A stretch of DNA of 64,000 nucleotides, taken from assembly GCA_951813855.1 (NCBI GenBank), contig OX638380.1, forward strand, positions 2,050,876-2,114,875, read 5' to 3'. The position numbers and the translations under genes were made by a program. Of this stretch, positions 7,973 to 64,000 are shown piece after piece. Below the pieces are notes generated by a model, which was given only the letters and a program-made list of their open reading frames with translations, did no database searches and was not told the DNA's origin. The first letter of the stretch is position 1, and each line of letters starts with the position of its first letter. The stretch comes from an uncultured Verrucomicrobiae bacterium. Its GTDB lineage: Bacteria > Verrucomicrobiota > Verrucomicrobiia > Limisphaerales > AAA164-E04.

Positions 7973-10096
7973 TCAACGTTCGGAGCGATTCTTGACCGCC
8001 GCGGCTTTAGCGGAAGGATTCTTGATCAACAGCTTGATCACGTCCATTTCCTGTTCGAGGTCCCGATCGCCTAGGGCAGTCATTTCCGCATTGAAGTGCT
8101 TGCGAAACTTTTTGAATTCCTTGCGGAAAGGTTGAGACACGTACAAGGGGATCGAACGCCGTTCCCACTGCCCCAACGAGGGCCGAGGACCGTGTCCCGG
8201 CCAAATGGCGATTCTGCCCTCTTTCGGTTCGGGTTCGGGTCTCGGCCGCCAAAGAATGGGACGCACCACCGGCCGTTCGTTTTCATAACTATACCGTTCC
8301 TCCTGAATCCAACTTCTCAAGAGATTAGCGTATTGAACCAACAGCACTCCTTTACGGATCCCGGAATGATCGAAATGCGTCTCGGTTTCCCGGCGCATTT
8401 TCACTTCCGATCGATTGTCGAATTTCTTCCCCTTCCGATTTTCATAACCGACCGCCAGCTTTAGAGTCTGATTCTTTACGGCCTCGTTGCGCGACAGTTT
8501 CAACAGGATCAAGCCCCCGCGAGTCTTCCCCTCCTCCGTAGGCGAAGGAAAGAGGGTGTTGACCCGGAACACTTCCCCGGTAGCCGTATCGGCTTCGGGA
8601 GAACCGTACACCTTTTCGATGCTCCAGCCCTTGCCCGCAAGTTTTAGCCGAAGATCGAACACCAGCGGCGTCACCATGTAGTCGAAATACTCGTCCAAGC
8701 GTTTGACGAACTCCTTGGGCGAGTGAACCGAATAGTAATTGGCGCCGCGATTCTTGGTGATGCTCTGAATCAAATCGGAATTAAAATCGACGCCCACGCC
8801 GATTACCGTCGAATAAATGCCCCGAGCGGCGTTGTCTTCGATCATGCCGAACAGTCCTTCCCGGCGGGTTTCCCCTTGGTTGGGCATGGCATCGGTGACG
8901 AAGATAATCCGATTCTCGCTGACTTGCGGATCGATCTTTCCCAGTTCGGAAAATTGCCGGGTCGCCAGCTTCATTCCGGCCGACATTTGCGTACCGGAAG
9001 AGGCTCGGAGGGCCTTGATTCGTTTCCGCAGCGCCTTCATATCGAGACTGTCGACTTTGGCCAGGGGCTGGATCGTCCGAGCCTCGTTGTTGAACGTGAC
9101 GATCGCGACGCGATCGTCCGGTTGCAGATGCTTCGTCAAGGCGGTCGCCGCCCGGATCGCCACCTGGATTTTCGCCGTTTCCGCTTCTTCCTCGCTCAGT
9201 TCGCGGCGCATCCGGCCGTCGTAATGGTACCGGTTGAAGGCGCTTTTCATGGAACCGGAAACGTCCATCACCAAGACGAGATTCAATTGCTTTCGCTCGA
9301 ACTCGTCCTCCTGAACTCCCGAATTAAGTCCCACCGAAAGGTAACGCTCGATTTCCCCGGAAAGCGGGTTTTTGACGACGGCTTCGGAGTATGAAGCGCA
9401 AAACAACTGATCACAGGGCTCTTCCTCGCCGGTTTCGAAAAAATAGTCATAGAACAGGCCTTCGAAGGTCACGTCGTCGGTCATCGGCAAATAGTCGTTC
9501 TCGATATTCTGGCGAAAATTGCCGACATCCTTCGCGCCGCCTACCGCAAACCCCAGCGACGCGGACTTGGCGCTAGGCGCCGCCGCCGCATCGAGGGAAA
9601 AAGACCTGCGCTGCAACTGCAAACTTTCCGCCTTGAACCGGGGCGCGGGCTGGCGTCCCAAGCGTTCGTTCAACGAAGCCCTTCCCCGCGCAGCGTCCGT
9701 TTCCGGGACCAACGGCTGCGCCAGCTGCAAGGCATCCGACACCTCGCCCGAGCGATCGGCGAAATCGGTCAAGTTCAAACCGACCAGATTCGCGCCGGTT
9801 AGTTTCGCGCCTTCCAGATTCGCACCCTCGAGGCGAGCCGCCCGTAAATCGGCACCTCTCAAATCGGCACCCCGGAGATTAGCTTGGCGCAGGTCGGCGC
9901 CCGATAAATCCGCGTCCCTCAAATCGGCGCCCGACAGATCCGCACCCACCAAGTTGGTCGAAGAAAGATCCCTTCCCGAGAAATCGACGCCCGACAAATC
10001 CTGGGCGGTGGTTCCGCTTAAGCACCACATGGCACAGCCGACCACCCACGTTCCCCAAACCCTCCGGTTCCAACCCAACCAATCAATCCCTTCCAT
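7973..10096 (-). CDS. Secreted pentapeptide-repeat plus von Willebrand factor A domain protein
   Basis: Signal-like N-terminus, ~15 A(D/N)Lxx pentapeptides and a MIDAS motif (MDVSGS...GT...FVTD). Start moved to the ATG at 10096 (purine-rich RBS) because the longer ORF overlaps iscU antisense. Confidence 0.82.
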
Positions 10097-51260: not shown

Positions 51261-51345
51261 TGGTGCGCGAGAGAGGACTCGAACCTCCACGCCCGTAGAC
51301 ATCAGATCCTAAATCTGACGCGTCTGCCAATTCCGCCACCCGCGC
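51261..51345 (-). tRNA. tRNA-Leu (anticodon TAG)
   Basis: GCGCGGG acceptor stem, D-loop GGAATTGGCAGAC, anticodon arm TCAGA-TTTAGGA-TCTGA, long variable arm, GGTTCGAGTCC, encoded CCA. Confidence 0.96.
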
Positions 51346-51507: not shown

Positions 51508-53507
51508 GTAACTGTTCAGGTGCCGAAAAAGGTTGAATTATCTGAACGCAACGGCCTGATTCTATTTCAATCCAAACTTCGCCAGCAACTGATCAGGAGA
51601 TGACATGACCGTTTCGACGAGATCCAAACTCTGCTTTTTCGCTGTGTTCACGATGCTGCACAAGCCGGCATAATCCTTGGCCCCTTGATACGTGCGAAAA
51701 CACCCAGAGATTTTCTGGCGAACTTTTATCATGCGCAAATCGTTTTCCGCTTGATTATTCGTGAAGGGGACATCCGGATCCGTCAGGAATCGCGAGGTGT
51801 CTTCCTTGTACTCCTGTAGCCTCACCGCTAGATTGTGCCCTTTCCGTTTCTTCTGCTTGCCTCGGTTTTCTGTTTCAGCGGTGGAAGGGATTCATAGTGC
51901 TGAATCGCTTGATCCAGGATTTGATCGTATTCCTCCAACATCCCACGCAGTTCTGGAAAATCGTCGGGATCTCCCCCTTTTTCCTTCTTTTTCCACCGAT
52001 TCATCCGGAGCAGAAGTTGTGGCATCTGTTCCGCCCATTTTTCTTTCGGATTGAGGTCCGACACCAGCTGAAGTTCTCTCAGGTGATGAGCGTTGCACAG
52101 GGCATGCTTCACTCCCTCAACCTTGTAATACGGTTTCCAGTGGTCGTGCACCAGGCAACCCCAAGGTTTCGGGAACATTTCTCCGCGTTTTTCGGATATC
52201 CGAAAAACCGTCAGGCACCAGGTGGCGGCTACGTGAAGCCAATGGAGCCTGCCGTTCACCCGAAAACCAGTCTCGTCCAGATTCTTGACCTTGCTGTCCT
52301 GACAGATCTTTTCCTCGAGTTTCTCGACTACGGGTTCCAAGCGTTGAGCCATTTTGCGGCACATCGTCGTTACCGTGCCCTCGGATATCCTGATCTTGAG
52401 GAAGAGTTCCAGAATTCTCACGATCTTGTTGACGGGCAACTGAATCTCCGGGTGCAAGATGCAGACCATCGCCATGAACTCTGGCCCATACGGTACCGGA
52501 GCTCTCACCGATTCCGGATATGGGGCCCGAGTTATTCCCTGGCAACAAGGACAATGCTCTTCAAGCGCCCGGTGCTCGATCACATGCACTTTGCCGTCCT
52601 TCAGATCAATGATCTGACGGCTGCTGTTATTCCCCGTCAAGTCATCGCCAACCAGCTTCGAGCCACAGTGGCGGCAGGTCTTCGGGGAGTGGTTGACGAT
52701 TAGATCCGGATCAGTTCTTGAGTGACAGGTATGTCGCTGATGGCCGACTTGGCCGCCAGGTTTCTTCCCAGACTTTTCTCTGAGGCTCCGGTTGCGATCG
52801 ACGGCAGGCTTTTTCGCCAATCCGTCCGATGAGGGAGGCTTGCTGCTGTTGCTGCTGTTCTGTTTCAGGCGGCGGTTGGCTTCATCCAGTGCCTGTTGAA
52901 GCGAGGCGATCTCTTCAGCCGCCTGATCGGTGGTGTCGTCTTTCTGCGCCTCGGAACACCCCTGTGATTCGTTCTGTTTCTTCGAAGATGGCTCCTGACT
53001 GACCTCCTGATCTCCGCGTTCGTTCTGACTCAACTTGTGGCGCAACTCAGCCAATTGCTTATGCAACTCAGCCAACTGCTCATCTCGTTCGGCCAATTGC
53101 TTATCTTTTTCGGCCAACTGCCCACGTAGCTTGGTCAATTCATCGCGCAGGTCGTTGAACCGAGAGACGTACCACTGTTTGTCGGATCCGAACAAATGAG
53201 AACGGCACGGATGAGTGTCCCCAACAGAAGCATCAGATTTGCCTTTGAGGTTTTCCCCCACGGCCTTATGGTACCTCCGATATCCGAAAAAGTCAAACTT
53301 TTTTCCAAAATCGGATTCTCGATCCACTGACGGCCCCATCTCTGGATCCTAGGAACGCCCAACTGGAGATTCTCAGCCTTCGTATGTTTCTGACCTTTCG
53401 CACCAGAAAAACCTCTCGATGGACAGGTGCACCATTCGGGGTTTGCCGACCCCCAACGGTTGGCTCTAATGCGTCAGATCAGGAAATTCCGGCACCTGAA
53501 TAGTTAC
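51508..53507 (-). mobile_element. IS66-family element type A (single-ORF), no TSD
   Basis: 18-bp TIRs GTAACTGTTCAGGTGCCG / CGGCACCTGAATAGTTAC with 1 mismatch. Confidence 0.9.
51562..53339 (-). pseudogene. IS66 transposase, frameshifted near 51865
   Basis: NSSKPPSSD, LDETGFR, LCNAHHLREL; the C-terminus GHNLAVRL...PFTNNQAENDLR is in another frame. Confidence 0.88.
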
Positions 53508-53623
53508 GAGGATTGCTGGAAGTCGACTCTGTTTGATTTGCAGAAACGCTCGCCATGATACATAATCGCACGGTTCGAGCGTTTTTGCAAGGAAAATTGA
53601 ATTTCGGATACGTAGGCAGTTAC
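53508..53623 (-). mobile_element. 116-bp left-end fragment of IS66 type B
   Basis: The reverse complement aligns, with few mismatches, to 60313 onward, including the TIR GTAACTGCCTACGTAT. Confidence 0.88.
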
Positions 53624-53712: not shown

Positions 53713-53946
53713 TCACCAGCCCATCCACCAACGGAACATACTGGGAGCGTAGATATCGACAAGAATATCGACAAGGTTTTTCACTCCCAGGATCAGAATA
53801 CCAATAATCATTATCCACATAGGAACACAAATAATAAAAGAAACAATCTTAAAAAGAACATCAAACCACTTCTCCCATCGGGAGGCAGTCCGGTGGCAGT
53901 GGTGGTTTCTTGCGTTCATTATCGGAGCCATCCGTCTGTCAGCCAT
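53713..53946 (-). CDS. Small membrane protein (candidate immunity protein)
   Basis: 77 aa with a long hydrophobic segment; overlaps the 3' end of the upstream AT-richer gene. Confidence 0.5.
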   Translation of the reverse strand: MADRRMAPIMNARNHHCHRTASRWEKWFDVLFKIVSFIICVPMWIMIIGILILGVKNLVDILVDIYAPSMFRWWMGW

Positions 53947-54293
53947 TCAAAAAATCCCGGTTCATTTTTCTCGTAAGGAGGAAACGGGATTCTGCCATCT
54001 TGAATCATTTGATATTCAAGCGTTGAACGAGAATCAGGCGCAACAATACCGCAAGGCGGAGGTCCTAAATGATTTATCTTGTTCGAACGTTCAGTAACAC
54101 AATCCAAAATTTCCGATATTGCGCCATCCATTGTCAAGCCGTCTTCGTGCATGCAAATAGCGAAATCGCTGCCAATTTCAATGAGGCCTATACCTAAACC
54201 AAGAAACATACCTTTTTTTACAGATTGGTTTTGAATCCGTTTTCTAGTAAGAAAATTCGAGAACGAATTCGCTTTATTTGGAGATTTCTTATA

Positions 54294-55446
54294 TCAATCT
54301 TTGCAAAAGTAATGTCATAATTGATCAGGAATTTATTAATCCGAAAAATGAAAAATATTTATTTTTTTTTGCAACGTTTTTTGTATTGAGAATGTCTATA
54401 AAGACGTGAACGATAAACCAACTCAATCTTCTCGTAATCACTATACCTATGAACTACGAACAACTGCGGTAGAAGCTGTTAAAAATGGCTCAACCGTAGC
54501 TGAAGTTGTCAGTGTAATGGGTATGTCTGCACGCACAGTATTTCGCTGGCTTGTTTGGTTTTCGACTGGGAGTTACGAAGGACTCAAAGACAATCCTAAA
54601 TCAGGACGTCCCCGTAAGATTACAGAAGAAATGGCTCAATGGTTATACAACGCGGTGACTATGGGAAATCCCAAGCAATTTCAATTCGACTTTTGCCTGT
54701 GGAGTCTCAAAACCATGCAAGTGTTATTGAAACAACAATTCGGGGTGTCGGTTCACGTTTCCACCATCAGTCGATTGCTTCATTCTATGGGATTAACTCC
54801 CCAGCGCCCCATCCACAAGTCTTACAAACAAAACCAGAAGAAAATCAAACGGTATCTGGAGATGTTTCCAGGCTTGAAACAACGAGCTGAGCAAGAGAAT
54901 GCCCTAATTCTCTTTTTGGATGAAGCGTCAGTCCGAGCTGATTATCATCGAGGAACCACTTGGTCTCGAATCGGTGTCACGCCGGTAGTTCGAGATGCCG
55001 GGGATCGCTATTCGATTAAACTAGTTTCAGCCATATCCGCTGACGGGCGGATGATATTTAACATTTTCAAAGGAAAAATGAATGCCCAGCGTTTTTGTGA
55101 GTTTTTATCGAAACTCTCTAAGGATGTGGGACGGAAAATAATTGTTGTTTGTGATAACGCCAGCTATCATACAGCAGATTATACCCAAGAGTTCGTAGCC
55201 GAAAACGATAGTATTGAAATGAAATATCTTCCTCCATACAGCCCTGAATTAAATCCCGATGAGCAGGTTTGGAACCATTTAAAGCAAAGATTAGCTAAAA
55301 TAATGATACCCAACAAAAAGACGATGCAACAGAAAATTCAAAACATTATGCAATCCATCCAAAAGAAAATGGGAATGGTCCAATCATACTTTAAATTGGA
55401 TGATACTCGATATATAATTACATGACATTACTTTTGCAATGATTGA
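54294..55446 (+). mobile_element. IS630-family element with TA duplication
   Basis: About 25-bp TIRs TCAATC(T/A)TTGCAAAAGTAATGTCAT, flanked by TA at 54292-54293 and 55447-55448. Confidence 0.92.
54406..55425 (+). CDS. IS630 family transposase (intact)
   Basis: N-terminal HTH, SGRP.K, FLDEA, VCDNASYH, LPPYSPELNPDEQVW. Confidence 0.93.
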   Translation: MNDKPTQSSRNHYTYELRTTAVEAVKNGSTVAEVVSVMGMSARTVFRWLVWFSTGSYEGLKDNPKSGRPRKITEEMAQWLYNAVTMGNPKQFQFDFCLWSLKTMQVLLKQQFGVSVHVSTISRLLHSMGLTPQRPIHKSYKQNQKKIKRYLEMFPGLKQRAEQENALILFLDEASVRADYHRGTTWSRIGVTPVVRDAGDRYSIKLVSAISADGRMIFNIFKGKMNAQRFCEFLSKLSKDVGRKIIVVCDNASYHTADYTQEFVAENDSIEMKYLPPYSPELNPDEQVWNHLKQRLAKIMIPNKKTMQQKIQNIMQSIQKKMGMVQSYFKLDDTRYIIT

Positions 55447-55936
55447 TATTCAGCAAAATCTTCTCCCAAATTAAGTTCCCCTTGGATGAGTTCTCCTGGA
55501 ACGCTTTGAATTCGTCCATAGGCCTCCGGCACAGGCAATCCGCTGGGAGCGTAATACCATATATTCACGTCTTCCAGAGTATAGACGGTCCCTGCCAATA
55601 CAGATTCCGTATATGTCACGGCATAGTATTCGTCAAACCCACCGAGTGTCCAAATCAGCGTTTCCCCAGTGGGCAACTCCCAGTGAACTTTCCCATCATC
55701 CCAAAACTGATCGTATAAATCATCTTTTGTTATATCGAGCGATATTCCAAACTGATCACATAACGCGTTGGTGTCAGCTATTAATTCGTCCAATGTGATT
55801 CCCTGAGGGCCCATGAAGGAAGCATCAGAAATCCAGTCAGGCGCTGGGCCGATAGAATCCAATTGTGGCGGAGTATATGTGAGAGTTGCAACTTCTCCGC
55901 CGAAATCGGCGACCAACAAGTCTCGCAAAGCGCTTT

Positions 55937-55963
55937 GTAACTATTCAGGTACCGAAAAAAGTT
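55937..55963. mobile_element. Orphan IS66 type A terminal inverted repeat
   Basis: GTAACTATTCAGGTACCGAAAAAAGTT resembles GTAACTGTTCAGGTGCCGAAAAAGGTT at 51508. Confidence 0.8.
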
Positions 55964-56128
55964 AGCGATTCCCACTGAAAACAGTTCAGCTTGAGTCCCA
56001 TTTGGGGCCTCCGGGAATCGAAAAATTTCAGGTGATCGGTCTCTTCCATGGACTCTCCTAGGTAATCGTGCAGCCAATACCTCGGTGCTCACCCCATGGA
56101 CAAATGGAACCCAAGCCAAGCCGCCCAG

Positions 56129-56950
56129 ACTAGCGGAAGCCGTTTGATTCGGCAAGCTCTTTCCTCGCCGTCTCGGCGCTGAAATCCTAAAGTGCGATCC
56201 ACCAGCTCCCGGCCACGGCGAACGAGAGTCCACCCGGCGACCTTCCCCAACGCAGAAGAACTCGCCGCGGACAGCGTCGATGGCGGGTCGGGATTCTATC
56301 CTAGTCGCCGTCGAATTCATCAGGCCCCGCACACTAGCGGAAACCGTTTGATTCGGCAAGCTCTTTCTTCGCCGTCTCGGCGGCGAAATCCCGGAGCGCG
56401 AACCACCAGCTCCCGGCCACGGCGAACGAGAGTCCACCCGGCGACCTTCCCCAACACAGGAAAACTCGCTGCGGACAACGTCGATGACGGGTCGGGATTC
56501 CATCTTGGTCGCCGTCGAATTCATCAGGCCCCGCACACTAGCGGAAGCCGTTTGATTCGGCAGGCCCTTTCCTCGCCGTCTCGGCGCTGAAATCCCAAAG
56601 TGCGAACCACCAGCTCCCGGCCACGGCGAACGAGAGTCCGCCCGGCGACCTTCTCCAACGCAGAAGAACTCGCCGCGAACAGCGTCGATGGCGGGTCGGG
56701 ATTCTATCCTGGTCGCCGTCGAATTCATCAGGCCCCGCACACTAGCGGAAGCCGTTTGATTCGGCAAGCCCTTTCTTCGCCGTCTCGACGCCGAAATCCT
56801 GGAGCGCGAACCACCAGCTCCCGGCCACGGCGAACGAGAGTCCACCCGACGACCTTCCCCAACGCAGAAGAACTCGCCGCGGACGGCGTCGATGGCGAGT
56901 CGGGATTCTATCCTGGTCGCCGTCGAATTCATCAGGCCCCGCACACTAGC
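56129..56950. repeat. Tandem array of four diverged 204-bp units
   Basis: ACTAGC marker at 56129, 56333, 56537, 56741 and 56945 (exact 204-bp period); units are highly similar but not identical. Confidence 0.95.
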
Positions 56951-56951
56951 C

Positions 56952-59396
56952 CTACCGAGTAGACATAAAATTACATGGCAATGGCTTTTTTGCCTGCCTC
57001 AAAACCTGCCTTATACGCTGCTTCGTATACCTCGGCACACTTGGCGCCGTAGCCGTAGCGATGTCCCAAACTCGCTCCCGAAAGCTTCGTATAGCCATAC
57101 CACATGATTTGATTTCCGGGTTCGGTATCATGCTTGCGACCGCGGTAGCCTCCCAGCTCGGCTACCAACCGAACCGCGTTGCCCAACTCATTCGGCAATT
57201 TCATCTTGAGTGCCAAGGCGTAGTGCTTTAGAAAACTCAGTTCCTCATCGCTGAACATTAATTTCGGATCGCAATCAGGCACTTGGCGACCCAAGAGCGT
57301 CATCACCATGATACGCCAAGCGATCACGGCATTGATCGCGATGGCTCGTTGTAATCTGCTGGCGGTACGGAACATCAAGTATTCGGCTTTGCATCCCGAT
57401 TTGAGGACTCGAAAAAAATCCTCGATCCGCCAACGTTGATTATAAAACCTCACCATTTCGGCGGCTTTTTCGGCATCTTTGACTTCCACGCTAGTCAATA
57501 AGTACCACTGGAGGGGTTTTTCCTCTTCGGGCGGGTCGGTTTCCTCAACATGAACGGCGGAGAGCCGGACCGGATCGGCCTGGAGATATGTTTTCGTCGC
57601 GGGCAGCGTCACGTGACAGAACCGCAACACGCAGCGCGCCACTCGCTTCTTCCGCGTCGGTCGAGCTGCCTTGCGGCTGGATTTCGGGCGTTCCGTCAGA
57701 CCGTCGACTTCAAGGCTCAAATGATCCGCGGGCCGTTGCCGTTTGATAGTGGCGAATAGTTTCGCTTCTTCAGGCTTTAATTTTCGGTCGTGTCGGGCTC
57801 GCACCAGTAGTTCCGTTCGAGGGCGTTGACGCTGAGCGTGAAATAATTCGAACATGTCCGCCTCGCGATCGCACACCGAGATAACCTGCGTTCGGCGAGT
57901 CAGTTGACTCGCCGCGTCGGCGCAATCTTTCCAGCCAGCCAACCAACGTTGTGAGGCCAAGCGTTCTGATTGGGCGGCGACTTCGGGTGTCGGATCAAAT
58001 CCCAAGCGCAACAGCCCCAAAGGCAGACCTTGATCGGTGACCGCCAAAGTAGCGTGAAGATGCAGGCCGAAGGCCTTGGCCTGGGTTTGATTCTGCCCGA
58101 TAAGGCTTAAGTCTTCGCACCCGGGGCGAGTGGTGAAATTGAAATCGGTGCCGTCTTGAATCGCCAGCACCGTCTTTTGACCGCGCATGCGTCGCAGGCT
58201 GCGTTCCCGATGTGGCGCCAAGATGTTGGGCACCGTGACCTCCGAGGTCTCCGGTTGCTCAATCAAACGATAATAGCCGCAGATCGCCGCTTCGTCGCTC
58301 TGGTCGTTGGCATTGATGGCTCGCCCCGGATACTCCGCCAGCAGCGAAGCGCTTTTGATCAGTCGGGCTGTCAAGCGCTGATCCCCCAACCTGGCTTCTC
58401 CAAACTCATTCGCGGCCCATTCTTCTGAATTCAGTCCCGCTCCGATCGGCAGCGTGGCCGCCAGCTCAACCCGGGGAACTCCCAGGCGCCGGCGCCAATC
58501 GCGCCGCAAGGGTCTCACGAATATCCGCTTGACCGTTTTTTGGCGAAGGTTTTTTCGATCCTGCCGTCCTCGCCCGGCCGTCTTCCCGACCAAGATGAAA
58601 TTAGCGGCCTTGAGACAGGTTCCTTGGTAACCCTCGTCCAGATAGGTTTCCACCAGCCAAGGTTCTTGATTGTAGCGGGTTTGGAATTCCTCGGGTAGCC
58701 GGCGCAGCAGAGTTCCTAGCAGGTGACTCGCCAGATTCCGGCAGCGGACCCTGGAGCGGATCAAGAATCGATTCAGGCAAACCATTCGATCAAGCTGAGC
58801 CTTTCGCACCGACTCCGACCAGGCTATCCAGTGATCCCGCGCCCGAACTTTCAAGGCCGCGGCGGCAAAGCCGGCGGCCCCCAAATAGCCATGCTCCGAA
58901 TGGAACAGATAGCGCAGTTGCTGACCGGCGAAAGTCGCGATCCCCTGGGGATGCTCTCGAGCGATCAGGGTGTTCCAAATGGCTCGATCCTCCGAAGTTT
59001 CAACCCAGATAATATTGAGATTCCGAACGGCCTTCAACTTGTCCGGAACCGCTTCGGGTTCCGGAATCGCCTGAGCTAACAAGCGCGGCCCCGAGGACTT
59101 CACCGACGGCTGAGCGTCCGGCAATCGGATCTCCGGGTGGTTCGACGCCAACGTTCTCAGCACCTTCAAACAACCGGCGACCTGAAGCCGGCCACCTCGA
59201 TTTCTAAAATCGAAAGTTTCGCAAACCCGGCGTCCGAAAGCATTCCGGCTCGTGAAAGTTTCAGCCGCTAAGAGGCCAATGATCCTTGATTGCGCCTCGG
59301 CGGTTTTCAAAACCAGATTGATGTTCCCTCGTTTCACACCCCGAAATTACTCGAAGTGAATCCCATTGTCCAGATCTTTTTTTATCTACACGGTAG
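56952..59396 (-). mobile_element. IS4-family element with an 8-bp target duplication
   Basis: Imperfect TIRs CTACCGAGTAGACATAAAA / TTTTATCTACACGGTAG; CACTAGCC at 56944-56951 and 59397-59404. Confidence 0.9.
56971..59337 (-). CDS. DUF4338 (DruA-like)-IS4/Tn5-like transposase fusion (intact)
   Basis: N-terminus QQLRYL, VCLNRFLI, NLASHLL, VETYLD, GTCLKAANF; C-terminus WAANEFG...GDQRLTARL, IQDGT, VCDREAD, RWRIEDFFRVLKSGC. Confidence 0.9.
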   Translation of the reverse strand: MKRGNINLVLKTAEAQSRIIGLLAAETFTSRNAFGRRVCETFDFRNRGGRLQVAGCLKVLRTLASNHPEIRLPDAQPSVKSSGPRLLAQAIPEPEAVPDKLKAVRNLNIIWVETSEDRAIWNTLIAREHPQGIATFAGQQLRYLFHSEHGYLGAAGFAAAALKVRARDHWIAWSESVRKAQLDRMVCLNRFLIRSRVRCRNLASHLLGTLLRRLPEEFQTRYNQEPWLVETYLDEGYQGTCLKAANFILVGKTAGRGRQDRKNLRQKTVKRIFVRPLRRDWRRRLGVPRVELAATLPIGAGLNSEEWAANEFGEARLGDQRLTARLIKSASLLAEYPGRAINANDQSDEAAICGYYRLIEQPETSEVTVPNILAPHRERSLRRMRGQKTVLAIQDGTDFNFTTRPGCEDLSLIGQNQTQAKAFGLHLHATLAVTDQGLPLGLLRLGFDPTPEVAAQSERLASQRWLAGWKDCADAASQLTRRTQVISVCDREADMFELFHAQRQRPRTELLVRARHDRKLKPEEAKLFATIKRQRPADHLSLEVDGLTERPKSSRKAARPTRKKRVARCVLRFCHVTLPATKTYLQADPVRLSAVHVEETDPPEEEKPLQWYLLTSVEVKDAEKAAEMVRFYNQRWRIEDFFRVLKSGCKAEYLMFRTASRLQRAIAINAVIAWRIMVMTLLGRQVPDCDPKLMFSDEELSFLKHYALALKMKLPNELGNAVRLVAELGGYRGRKHDTEPGNQIMWYGYTKLSGASLGHRYGYGAKCAEVYEAAYKAGFEAGKKAIAM

Positions 59397-59620
59397 CACT
59401 AGCCCGCAAATCTCACCAGCCCCTAAAGCATAAAAATTGGTAACCCCGAATGGCGAACATCCATTTCCGATCTCGTGGACATGGACTCCCAATCGAAGGT
59501 TCTTGGTCGAACTACTCCCAAATGGCATCCATCCAGTCCTTCGAGAGATTTTTCCGATGCGAAAGGCCAGGATCATCCGAAGGCGGAGAATCCCCAGTCG
59601 AGCGTTCTTAGGATCCAGAG

Positions 59621-60312: not shown

Positions 60313-62214
60313 GTAACTGCCTACGTATCCGATATTCAATTTTCCTTGCGGAAACGCTCGAACCGTGCTATTATGGGTCATGGCGAGCGTTTCTGCAAAT
60401 CAAACAGAATCGACTTCCAGCAATCCTCAAACGAAACCGGCTCGGGGGATCAATCTCTTTCTATTCTTATTCCAGCAGTTTCCGCTGCTGAAATCAAAAA
60501 TCAAGGAGTTGCGGCAGCGAATTCAGGAACTTCTTCGCCGGAATCGAGAATTGGAACTTTTGGTCCAGCGGCAAAAGGATCAGATCACCGAATTGAAGGA
60601 GGAAAAAGTCCGCTGGGAGAATGGTAACGCCGCGGCAACTATTCCAGACGGCGCTTCGACGTTCCCTTCCGAATCGGCAACCGCCGAACGGTCCGACGGT
60701 GCCGCTTCCGGGGAGAAAAAGCTCCAGGAACAATTAGAGGAGCAGCTCGCCTTGGTTGGCGAATTAACGGAAACCATCACGGAGTTAAAGCAACAAGCCG
60801 CCAAGGACAGTAGCAACAGCAGCAAGCCGCCTTCTTCGGATGGGTTGAAAAAGAAAAACGCCACCGTCAACGGCCAACCTAAACGCCAGTGCGAAAAGAA
60901 ACCGTTAGGTGGCCAACCCGGACATCAAGGCCGGACCATGGAACAAGGTTCGCATCCGGATCATCACCAGGATCGGTACCCGGAGGTCTGCCCGCATTGC
61001 GGGGAAACTCTCGAGTCAGATACCGAATGGGATTCGACTTGCGAGAAGCGACAAGTTCTGGACGAGAATGAGACGAATCGCCAACTGGAATACACGGAGT
61101 ATCGAGCTCACAGTTGCTCTTGTCCGAAATGCGGCAAGCGGGTCAAGGCCGCCTTTCCCAAGGGAGTTGACGGGCCGATCCAGTTCGGCCCGATTTTGAC
61201 CGCGAAAGTGATCTATCTGCGGGTCGCTCAATTCCTGCCCGAGCGGCGAGTCGTGGACATTATGCGCGTGCTTTTGAAGGTCGACCTCTCCTCAGCCACG
61301 GTCAAGAAGATGTGTCAACGGGCGGCGAAACTGATCGCTCAAGTGCTCCAGGAACTGGAGCGACAGGTGGCGCAAGGAACCGAGACCAAGCATCTGGACG
61401 AGACTGGTTTTCGCATCGGCGGTCGCCTTTGGTGGCTGCACGTCATGAGCACTCTGACCCTGACGTGCTATCGCATTTCGCCCACCCGCGGCGCCATGTT
61501 TGAGTCCCTCCAGGGACGAGTGGTTCATGACTGCATGCCTTCCTATGCGAAAATGACGGATCTTATTCATGGGTACTGCAATGCTCATCTATTGCGGGAA
61601 TTGCAAGCGGTCATGGAACAAGGCGAGAATTGGGCTCAAAAAATGCATCGGTTCCTGCTACTGCTGGAACGATACGTTCGGCGAGCAAAATATCGCGCCG
61701 CTCAAGCCGGCAATCGAGGTTCGCCCCTCGTTTCGGATGAGATCTGGGAAAAAATCGATCGCCGATATGGTGAATTGTTGGCGCTGGCGATAACCTATCA
61801 TGAGGAGAATCCACTGGTATCTTCTCGTAAGCGCGGCAGGAAGAAACGACGCCCCGGTCATAATCTAGCGTTACGGCTCCAGGATAAAAAAGAGGATTTC
61901 CTTCGGTTTGTGAGGGATTGGAGCATCCCTTTTACCAACAATTTGGCCGAACGCGACTTGAGAATGATGAAACTCTGCATGAAAATCTTCGGATGCTTTC
62001 GCACCGAAGCAGGCGCTCGAGATTTCGTCGCTCTGTACAGCGTCATCAGCACTGCCAAAAAAAGAGGGTGGGAAATCATCCAAACTCTGGCACTTTCCGC
62101 ACAAGAACTGACCGTTAAGTTGCAGGCCGCCTAACTTTGCCAGGGTTGAACCGGCACTCACGAACTAATGGGTCATTCTTGTCAAAAAAAGGCATCCCAT
62201 ACGTAGGCAGTTAC
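60313..62214 (+). mobile_element. IS66-family element type B, complete
   Basis: Perfect 16-bp TIR GTAACTGCCTACGTAT; 8-bp TSD TTAAATCT at 60305-60312 and 62215-62222. Confidence 0.95.
60365..62134 (+). CDS. IS66 family transposase (single ORF, intact)
   Basis: Coiled-coil, NSSKPPSSD, zinc-finger CPHC/CPKC, HLDETG, CNAHLLREL, PFTNNLAERDLR. Confidence 0.93.
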   Translation: MLLWVMASVSANQTESTSSNPQTKPARGINLFLFLFQQFPLLKSKIKELRQRIQELLRRNRELELLVQRQKDQITELKEEKVRWENGNAAATIPDGASTFPSESATAERSDGAASGEKKLQEQLEEQLALVGELTETITELKQQAAKDSSNSSKPPSSDGLKKKNATVNGQPKRQCEKKPLGGQPGHQGRTMEQGSHPDHHQDRYPEVCPHCGETLESDTEWDSTCEKRQVLDENETNRQLEYTEYRAHSCSCPKCGKRVKAAFPKGVDGPIQFGPILTAKVIYLRVAQFLPERRVVDIMRVLLKVDLSSATVKKMCQRAAKLIAQVLQELERQVAQGTETKHLDETGFRIGGRLWWLHVMSTLTLTCYRISPTRGAMFESLQGRVVHDCMPSYAKMTDLIHGYCNAHLLRELQAVMEQGENWAQKMHRFLLLLERYVRRAKYRAAQAGNRGSPLVSDEIWEKIDRRYGELLALAITYHEENPLVSSRKRGRKKRRPGHNLALRLQDKKEDFLRFVRDWSIPFTNNLAERDLRMMKLCMKIFGCFRTEAGARDFVALYSVISTAKKRGWEIIQTLALSAQELTVKLQAA

Positions 62215-62441
62215 TTAAATCTTTTATCAGAATTTCATTCTGACATGTTAATGGACGGATAATCTCTCTGGTAATCTAAAAACTGATTTCGATGGTTTAT
62301 TTAAAGCTGGAAGTTATCAACCCATTTAGATCGATTCAATGGTTTTTGAGAGGCTTGATGACGGGAAATCTTAGTTTCCAATCCTTTGACAACCAACGAA
62401 TTAGAATTAATTAGTGTCTGGTCCAAAAGGGACGATTTTTC

Positions 62442-64000
62442 GTAACTGCCTACGTATGGGATGCCTTTTTTTGACAAGAATGACCCATTAGTTCGTGAGT
62501 GCCGGTTCAACCCTGGCAAAGTTAGGCGGCCTGCAACTTAACGGTCAGTTCTTGTGCGGAAAGTGCCAGAGTTTGGATGATTTCCCACCCTCTTTTTTTG
62601 GCAGTGCTGATGACGCTGTACAGAGCGACGAAATCTCGAGCGCCTGCTTCGGTGCGAAAGCATCCGAAGATTTTCATGCAGAGTTTCATCATTCTCAAGT
62701 CGCGTTCGGCCAAATTGTTGGTAAAAGGGATGCTCCAATCCCTCACAAACCGAAGGAAATCCTCTTTTTTATCCTGGAGCCGTAACGCCAGATTATGACC
62801 GGGGCGTCGTTTCTTCCTGCCGCGCTTACGAGAAGATACCAGTGGATTCTCCTCATGATAGGTTATCGCCAGCGCCAACAATTCACCATATCGGCGATCG
62901 ATTTTTTCCCAGATCTCATCCGAAACGAGGGGCGAACCTCGATTGCCGGCTTGAGCGGCGCGATATTTTGCTCGCCGAACGTATCATTCCAGCAGTAGCA
63001 GGAACCGATGCATTTTTTGAGCCCAATTCTCGCCTTGTTCCATGACCGCTTGCAATTCCCGCAATAGATGAGCATTGCAGTACCCATGAATAAGATCCGT
63101 CATTTTCGCATAGGAAGGCATGCAGTCATGAACCACTCGTCCCTGGAGGGACTCAAACATGGCGCCGCGGGTGGGCGAAATGCGATAGCACGTCAGGGTC
63201 AGAGTGCTCATGACGTGCAGCCACCAAAGGCGACCGCCGATGCGAAAACCAGTCTCGTCCAGATGCTTGGTCTCGGTTCCTTGCGCCACCTGTCGCTCCA
63301 GTTCCTGGAGCACTTGAGCGATCAGTTTCGCCGCCCGTTGACACATCTTCTTGACCGTGGCTGAGGAGAGGTCGACCTTCAAAAGCACGCGCATAATGTC
63401 CACGACTCGCCGCTCGGGTAGGAATTGAGCGACCCGCAGATAGATCACTTTCGCGGTCAAAATCGGGCCGAACTGGATCGGCCCGTCAACTCCCTTGGGA
63501 AAGGCGGCCTTGACCCGCTTGCCGCATTTCGGACAAGAGCAACTGTGAGCTCGATACTCCGTGTATTCCAGTTGGCGATTCGTCTCATTCTCGTCCAGAA
63601 CTTGTCGCTTCTCGCAAGTCGAATCCCATTCGGTATCTGACTCGAGAGTTTCCCCGCAATGCGGGCAGACCTCCGGGTACCGATCCTGGTGATGATCCGG
63701 ATGCGAACCTTGTTCCATGGTCCGGCCTTGATGTCCGGGTTGGCCACCTAACGGTTTCTTTTCGCACTGGCGTTTAGGTTGGCCGTTGACGGTGGCGTTT
63801 TTCTTTTTCAACCCATCCGAAGAAGGCGGCTTGCTGCTGTTGCTACTGTCCTTGGCGGCTTGTTGCTTTAACTCCGTGATGGTTTCCGTTAATTCGCCAA
63901 CCAAGGCGAGCTGCTCCTCTAATTGTTCCTGGAGCTTTTTCTCCCCGGAAGCGGCACCGTCGGACCGTTCGGCGGTTGCCGATTCGGAAGGGAACGTCGA
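62442..64000 (-). mobile_element. Second, inverted copy of IS66 type B (runs off the window); transposase has a nonsense codon
   Basis: Reverse-complement copy of 60313..62214. CGA to TGA at 62984-62986; two silent differences seen (~62789 and 63419). Confidence 0.93.

Follow-up and report, generated by a model that had tools for sequence, protein, structure and literature searches.

Typical MITEs (miniature inverted-repeat transposable elements) are shorter than 300 bp, AT-rich and flanked by target site duplications (TSDs). The BOX elements of streptococci are built from modules; repeats on their end modules resemble a resident insertion sequence (IS), and the count of the tandem boxB modules between them is variable and changes between strains (PMC3049150). 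In Streptococcus suis two families of end module, boxAC and boxEF, surround the same internal module (PMC3049150). The repeat considered here is a tandem array of 204-bp units within a 64,000-nucleotide stretch (the window) of contig OX638380.1, from the assembly GCA_951813855.1 of an uncultured Verrucomicrobiae bacterium. Comparison with related loci indicates that the array is probably the internal tandem-repeat module, variable in number, of a multi-copy, non-autonomous, MITE-like element with inverted-repeat ends of the IS66 family. The array is real and fairly ordinary selfish DNA; it shows no trace of a protein, nor any convincing one of an RNA gene. In architecture its closest described analogue is BOX.

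The array and the element that carries it

The window contains a single tandem array, at 56129-56950, for which Tandem Repeats Finder gave a period of 204, 4.0 copies, 91% matches and 0% indels, bearing out the initial annotation, which had described four units of an exact 204-bp period without indels. The units and the module on their left are as follows.

55937-55962, plus strand: terminal inverted repeat (TIR) of IS66 type, GTAACTATTCAGGTACCGAAAAAAGT, forming the element's outer end; it differs at 2 of 26 positions from the end (51508-51533) of the IS66-family copy IS66-A
55937-56128, plus strand: 192-bp terminal module ('term'), adjoining units also in the contigs L001, L002, L004 and L007 at 89-93% identity
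56129-56332, plus strand: unit 1, A-type, adjoining the terminal module; 99% identical to L001:5989-6192
56333-56536, plus strand: unit 2, B-type by the unit alignment
56537-56740, plus strand: unit 3, A-type, 196/204 identical to unit 1
56741-56950, plus strand: unit 4, a mosaic of a B-type 46-bp segment in an A-like background, with the last 6 nt of the array

The four units could be aligned without gaps at a mean column identity of 96%. An A-B-A-B order with a 408-bp higher-order duplication had been proposed for them, and this was recovered only in part. In a segment of ~46 bp units 1 and 3, and likewise units 2 and 4, agreed at 42/46 positions, as against 38/46 for cross pairs; outside it, in 158 columns, units 1, 3 and 4 were alike (152-154/158) and unit 2 was the outlier. 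Since the alternation is confined to the short segment, unit 4 is a mosaic and no clean 408-bp duplication lies behind the array; gene conversion or unequal exchange is suggested instead. Both variants were found in independent runs and metagenomes, and the unit nearest the terminal module was A-type in most loci. Two long blocks quoted in the initial annotation occurred exactly four times each in the window and not at all in shuffles, but the pattern of invariant blocks flanking variable segments was lost when 16 units from seven loci were aligned: variation along the unit was then indistinguishable from an even spread (window-variance permutation p ~0.5), and the longest invariant run was 11 columns (p = 0.08). 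Self-alignment revealed no larger sub-repeat inside the unit. The short identical repeats and unique spacers of a CRISPR were not seen, as had been noted initially, the units being 204-mers that follow one another head to tail with no unique spacers. The GC content of the element was 63%, against 56% for the window. A caveat to be applied to the count of four units is that it rests on the window's assembly, short-read contigs being unable to span the array.

Relatives of the array were found by way of its translated open frame, as 16 predicted 'proteins'. Three of these (P0001, P0003 and P0006) were on one 4.89-Mb NCBI genome and the remainder on ENA metagenome contigs, which were retrieved as L001-L007 and L032-L036. 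In this way the unit was found at no fewer than nine other independent loci in close relatives, and at least nine distinct flanks of the element were seen across contigs. In L001, L002/L003, L004 and L007 the units directly adjoin the 192-bp terminal module that ends in the IS66-type repeat, and the number of units beside it ranged from 1 + 0.56 in L001 and 1.7 in L002 to at least 3 in L004, 4 in the window and 4.2 in L007. In sequencing runs of the source organism (X1, X2, X5 and X6) terminal module and units had a k-mer depth 11-43x that of the adjacent unique gene, which suggests ~10-40 copies of the element per genome. Beyond these relatives, the GTDB species representatives, IMG/VR and the JGI metagenomes contained no exact match to a 21-mer of the unit; the matches to a degenerate 23-mer were isolated ones at chance level, in high-GC Actinobacteria and similar genomes, and plasmid and phage collections held no match to the unit. 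The repeat family appears to be confined to one lineage. The related contigs also encode UnbV_ASPIC/FG-GAP proteins and sulfatases, a gene content that would be compatible with Planctomycetota.

The architecture of the element became apparent from a copy at L002:8123-8842, which is complete at 720 bp, has inverted 83-bp TIRs, carries no transposase and contains only the spurious open reading frame (ORF) of the array. Its parts are, in order, an 83-bp TIR, ~96 bp, 1.7 units and the terminal module with its inverted 83-bp TIR, and a complete copy of this first type reads as an 83-bp TIR, ~96 bp, n x 204-bp units and a 192-bp terminal module with inverted 83-bp TIR. The long TIR of complete copies corresponds to the first 83 bp of the terminal module. 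Of this only the outermost part is shared with IS66-A: similarity ends after the terminal 27 nt, 24 of them identical, and searches of the rest of the window with the unit, the terminal module and the distal remnant (blastn, tblastx) found nothing beyond this 27-nt repeat. The GTAACTATTCAGGTACCGAAAAAAGT repeat also matches 53487-53507 in inverted orientation. None of the three IS66 types in the window contains the 204-bp unit. The IS66 end placed beside the array by the initial annotation was thus correctly identified (2/26 mismatches against the IS66 copy at 51508), and its suggestion that the array is cargo of a non-autonomous IS66 derivative was essentially right, with a terminal module that finishes in an IS66-type inverted repeat always adjoining, many loci and a transposase-free 720-bp copy.

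A second element family (L005, L006, L035 and L036) shares with the first the units and the 72 bp of the terminal module that lie next to them (56057-56128 in the window), followed by a different 64-bp end (...CCGCTAATCAATTAC), which in L036 is continued by the final 12-15 nt of the IS66-B repeat TACGTAGGCAGTTAC. Because a read-contig junction at window position 56057, in reads of the source organism, matches the junction of this family, the second family is also present in that organism.

Several further features of the element were observed in passing. Close to the inner edge of the 83-bp TIR, its distal arm carries a perfect inverted repeat of 17 nt (GCTTGTGTCCCATTTGG ... CCAAATGGGACACAAGC; L002:8185-8240, L007:2450-2510), and many read contigs stop at window position 55989, the counterpart of this repeat. 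At one shared site the distal arm lies in opposite orientations in L002 (~9840-9960) and L007 (from 2399). In L006:1-437 and L036:1-568 a unit cut short at column 13 adjoins another IS66 element at the 3' end of the latter (transposase C-terminus ...PTNNRAERVLRP..., end AACCCGCTGATCAATTAC), and in L001 a unit cut short at column 89 adjoins a TIR of type 1. Such breaks of units at the ends of other elements were found repeatedly and suggest that elements have nested into repeats already present.

A comparison at one and the same locus was provided by L001, which represents the chromosomal site of the window itself (flanks 98-99% identical). At this shared site there are 4 units in the window and 1 + 0.56 in L001. 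A 570-aa gene with no Pfam match (L001:6681-8393), starting 5 nt beyond the TIR, is intact in L001, whereas in the window its pieces are the ORFs 53919-54209 and 55428-55928 (minus strand), split by an IS630, and its first 850 bp are missing, the deletion beginning exactly at the TIR of the element (55937). The gene was intact in runs X1 and X2 and the window junction was found in X5 and X6, so that the locus is polymorphic among strains. From its precise start at the element end we infer that the deletion was a transposase-mediated adjacent deletion. The rearrangements at this one locus are thus a change in unit number, the 850-bp adjacent deletion and the insertions of an IS4 and the IS630; arrays of this sort are hotspots of strain-to-strain rearrangement and a cause of breaks in short-read assemblies.

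Weighing the mobile-element reading against its rivals

Under the proposed mechanism a transposase of the IS66 family would move the elements in trans, recognising the shared terminal ~26 nt. Unit number would change fast through unequal recombination or slippage between units, and gene conversion would yield mosaic units such as unit 4. The units encode no protein and, three short hairpin cores in each excepted, evolve almost neutrally. The likeness to MITEs lies in the small size and lack of a transposase (L002:8123-8842), in ends that match IS elements and in many dispersed copies; the type-1 end resembles that of IS66-A, and the IS66-B repeat closes the type-2 end seen in L036. IS66-A is a candidate source of transposase for the type-1 elements, judging by its end sequence. 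The repeat of 0.8 kb, previously unannotated, is explained in this way as part of a mobile-element family and can be masked or annotated in this lineage.

A number of observations weigh against this reading. No TSD was found around the complete copies, at L002:8123-8842 (flanks ATTCGTGG and GGCAATTA) or in L035 (flanks GTCGCAAA and ACCCGAGT), a result resting on two copies that both lie in rearranged, IS-rich DNA; because of it, transposition of the small element is to be regarded as putative. Nor was an empty site recovered in the sequences retrieved; the comparison of L001, X1 and X2 with the window, X5 and X6 turned up not a filled and an empty site but a difference of 850 bp, deleted from the TIR onwards. 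Assignment to the MITEs is therefore incomplete. The match of IS66-A to the DDE domain ends at profile position 214/284, for which reason this copy may be decayed and the candidate transposase defective. The unit is kept under two different end types. Two further observations, on a hexamer in the units and on the orientation of the neighbouring gene, also count on this side. The hexamer CGGCGA/TCGCCG occurs 5 times per unit as against 0.5 in shuffles, and there are 23 per kb within the array as opposed to 2.5 per kb elsewhere in the window (~nine-fold). The 30 columns that it occupies were less diverse than the rest (0.046 vs 0.126, p = 0.003 in a post-hoc test), and the hexamers are the cores of three hairpins present in every fold. 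Their positions are given below.

Unit columns 23, 66, 93, 112 and 163, minus strand: CGGCGA/TCGCCG hexamers
Unit columns 22-28/112-118, 65-71/93-97 and 155-159/163-167, minus strand: the three hairpins of each unit

Enrichment together with low diversity points to some constraint, so that the units are not fully neutral. The hexamer was also considered as a site for the IS66 transposase, and this was rejected, the motif being absent from IS66-A and from the terminal module. As to the neighbouring gene, the first one called past the TIR lies on the array's minus strand in 9/9 independent loci (those listed being L001, L002, L004, L005, L006, L007, L032, L035, L036 and the window). This may reflect a function exerted on the downstream gene, a bias of insertion or orientation, or ascertainment, as the loci were found through a called ORF.

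These same observations are what recommend the best surviving alternative, that the units are a functional nucleic-acid module carried by IS66-type ends, either a structured RNA or a platform of single-stranded DNA or for protein binding, which might act on the adjacent co-oriented gene as, for example, an attenuator, a stabiliser or a protein-titration array. The CGGCGA cores, enriched and conserved, build three persistent helices, the same units stand under two end types and the downstream gene is consistently co-oriented. Such a module is nevertheless rather unlikely, for the co-orientation possibly stems from ascertainment, the units are routinely truncated, frameshifted or fractional, and the evidence from RNA structure is contradictory. 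At gathering thresholds Rfam matched only a tRNA elsewhere in the window, and at E values up to 10 there were two chance-level matches only. Compensatory changes were essentially lacking on either strand: RNAalifold on 16 units found them at 0/46 predicted pairs on the plus strand (covariation term +0.53 kcal/mol) and at 2/61 on the minus strand, in single sequences each (-1.32 kcal/mol). With 19 units, including five more divergent ones, 5/55 pairs on the minus strand were compensatory, again in single sequences each (-0.64 kcal/mol), and the 3' half of the predicted fold changed once the five units were added. The power of these covariation analyses is limited by a unit divergence of ~10-20%. 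In pair-count controls, made with shuffles and slides, the plus strand was at the level of shuffles and the minus strand marginal, with 9/500 shuffles reaching the observed percentage paired and 25/500 the observed covariation score, and the tool warns that marginal values of this kind can arise without structure.

There were also weak signs in favour of such a module. One-sided changes on the minus strand mostly keep G-U pairs. Compared with shuffles, the plus strand gave somewhat better folds (z = -2.5 with two units and -1.8 with one) and the minus strand did not (z = +0.4 and -0.2); the folding hint is thus on the plus strand and the G-U hint on the minus strand, so that the weak signals point to opposite strands. 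Every unit has a weak terminator-like hairpin on the minus strand, but a promoter scan found no sigma-70-like site, and the two RNA runs that were found contained no contig on the array, which is weak evidence as both were very small (39 and 55 million letters). The structured non-coding RNA array proposed in the initial annotation is accordingly not supported. A more specific proposal is that the three-hairpin CGGCG(A) units form a mobile regulatory cassette, which IS66-type ends would carry to sites upstream of genes, working through the transcript or through protein binding, in which the number of units tunes the co-oriented gene. This is quite improbable. If the hairpin cores and the co-orientation were functional the element would be such a cassette, for which the present evidence gives no support; were it true, a cassette tuned by unit number would be of a kind undescribed for IS66 derivatives.

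Far less can be said for the view that the array encodes a 68-residue Arg/Ser/Gly-rich repeat protein on the minus strand, which is very improbable and was rejected. The 387-aa minus-strand frame reported initially does exist, as ORF 55781-56944, and stays open across the four units and in the majority of relatives; three divides the period exactly, and a recurrent 3-nt deletion preserves the frame. A 68-codon open frame at 63% GC is, however, expected by chance in about one frame in ten by our own estimate. The ratio of non-synonymous to synonymous polymorphism (pN/pS) among 15 units was 0.73 for the open frame, a value not reduced relative to the other five frames (0.59-1.14), which contain 9-40 stops, so that the check for purifying selection proposed in the initial annotation found none in any of the six. 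Variable columns were spread 37/28/27 over the three phases without concentration at third positions. P0003 is frameshifted and units of L002 have 1-nt deletions. Neither the start nor the stop of the ORF is consistent, and the frame continues across terminal module and TIR into the DNA beside the element. The ORF had no match in Pfam, and an exhaustive HMMER search of 1.84 billion representative proteins returned 11 hits, nine of them translations of the same DNA family and two, P0019 and P0020, unrelated low-complexity repeats. The Arg/Ser-rich repeat protein of the initial annotation therefore fails on pN/pS, on frameshifts and on the lack of a Pfam family.

Finally, it is scarcely credible that the array is just a satellite of this one locus or an artefact of assembly, unconnected with mobile elements, and this was rejected: the four-unit count does rest on the window's assembly, as short-read contigs do not bridge the array, and the satellite first suggested was right in so far as repeat number is unstable, but the array is not a single local one, since its units recur with the same terminal module at at least nine independent loci, at a depth tens of times that of a single copy and with A-type and B-type variants in independent runs and metagenomes.

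The insertion sequences around the array

The probable MITE-like element lies in a nest of insertion sequences that occupies 51.5-64 kb of the window. Its principal members up to the second IS66-B copy are listed here.

51508-53507, minus strand: IS66-family copy A (IS66-A), transposase 51828-53339; Pfam DDE_Tnp_IS66, zf-IS66 and DUF6444
53508-53623: fragment of IS66 type B
54291-55449: IS630
56952-59396, minus strand: IS4-family element with inverted repeats and an 8-bp TSD, CACTAGCC, at 56944-56951 and 59397-59404
59405-59441, plus strand: short remnant of the distal arm of the array's element, cut at 59441/59442, from contig breakpoints
59442-60312, plus strand: IS66 copy A', 5'-truncated and diverged, a neighbour that does not belong to the element; its identity to 52648-53427, reverse-complemented, is 86-89%, with Pfam support

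The IS4-family element, of which read depth indicates ~9 copies per genome, encodes a 788-aa transposase (56971-59337, minus strand) with DruA-like, Tnp_DNA_bind, DDE_Tnp_1 and Tn5-dimerisation domains in Pfam, the DruA-like domain being N-terminal (PF14236, E = 1e-24). The combination of DruA and Tnp_DNA_bind was called again at L002:14878-16245. The IS4 had been described as inserted exactly at the start of a fifth unit. It does adjoin the array on the right, but when it is removed together with one copy of the TSD the joined sequence, ...CACACTAGCC|CGCAAATCTCACC..., is not that of a unit; the IS4 therefore struck the distal junction of the array, and there was no fifth unit. Contigs of X1 and X5 that share the remnant at 59405-59441 diverge after 59438, and contigs that share 59442 onward carry different sequence before that position. 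The window copy is thus a wreck, with one TIR left, an IS4 on its distal junction and a distal arm cut by a truncated IS66.

Beyond it, A' is interrupted at 60313 by IS66-B1 (60313-62214) with a clean 8-bp TSD, TTAAATCT; because this TSD is canonical, IS66 elements must be active here now or have been so recently. A second IS66-B copy, inverted, starts at 62442. The two inverted copies (60656-62219 and 62437-64000) are 100% identical over at least 1564 nt and 217 bp apart, a near-perfect palindrome that could drive inversion or deletion and carries a risk of misassembly. Within the transposase of IS66-A a 21-bp (7-codon) tandem repeat of ~4 copies was found at 53026-53130, in the N-terminal part upstream of the Pfam domains, which is probably a heptad-like coiled-coil segment. 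A tRNA gene (51264-51345, minus strand, Rfam 54 bits) lies ~160 bp from the left edge of the cluster, and the nest may mark a tRNA-adjacent variable region.

Comparison with described elements

Our literature search found no paper on IS66-derived MITEs with internal tandem repeats, and the comparison must be made with several systems, each of which matches the element in part. With the IS66 family itself (ISBst12-like, with a single ORF) the element has in common GTAA termini and, with IS66-A, 24/27 terminal nucleotides, and the sister copy B1 in the window makes the 8-bp TSD of the family; the element differs in having no transposase and no similarity past the terminal repeat. Among the MITEs mobilised in trans, such as Nezha, Correia/NEMIS and RUP, the small size, the lack of a transposase and ends that match a resident IS are all familiar, as are multiple copies, a mostly intergenic position and a potential for secondary structure. 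The copies described here differ in length, from 720 bp to more than 1.2 kb owing to the internal array, in being GC-rich and in that no TSD has been shown for them.

The bacterial interspersed mosaic elements (BIMEs), or clusters of repetitive extragenic palindromic (REP) sequences, resemble the array in their tandem palindromic units, alternating unit types and short conserved palindrome core. Their period, however, is ~80 bp, with REPs of 35-40 bp in alternating orientation, and they are linked to RAYT (IS200/IS605-like) and not IS66 transposases; no RAYT was seen here, none having been searched for.

The likeness to the boxA-boxB(n)-boxC elements of Streptococcus pneumoniae and S. suis is the closest. 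In both cases the end modules bear IS-like terminal inverted repeats, and the tandem internal modules vary in number, here with 0.56-4.2 units beside the same terminal module. Length changes fast between strains at one locus, and there are two families of end module, boxAC and boxEF in S. suis and the type-1 and type-2 ends here. In both, too, copies are many per genome and often nested with IS elements. The likeness to boxA, boxB and boxC is one of architecture only; Rfam and the sequence collections searched held no match. boxB is 45 bp long whereas the unit here is 204 bp with three hairpins, and the element described here has IS66-like ends, 63% GC and an unrelated, GC-rich bacterial host. 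Transcription and regulatory effects have been shown for BOX. The element described here adds a new family of repeats to a kind already known, and extends beyond the streptococci the examples of modular interspersed repeats in which an internal module, variable in number, is common to two types of end.

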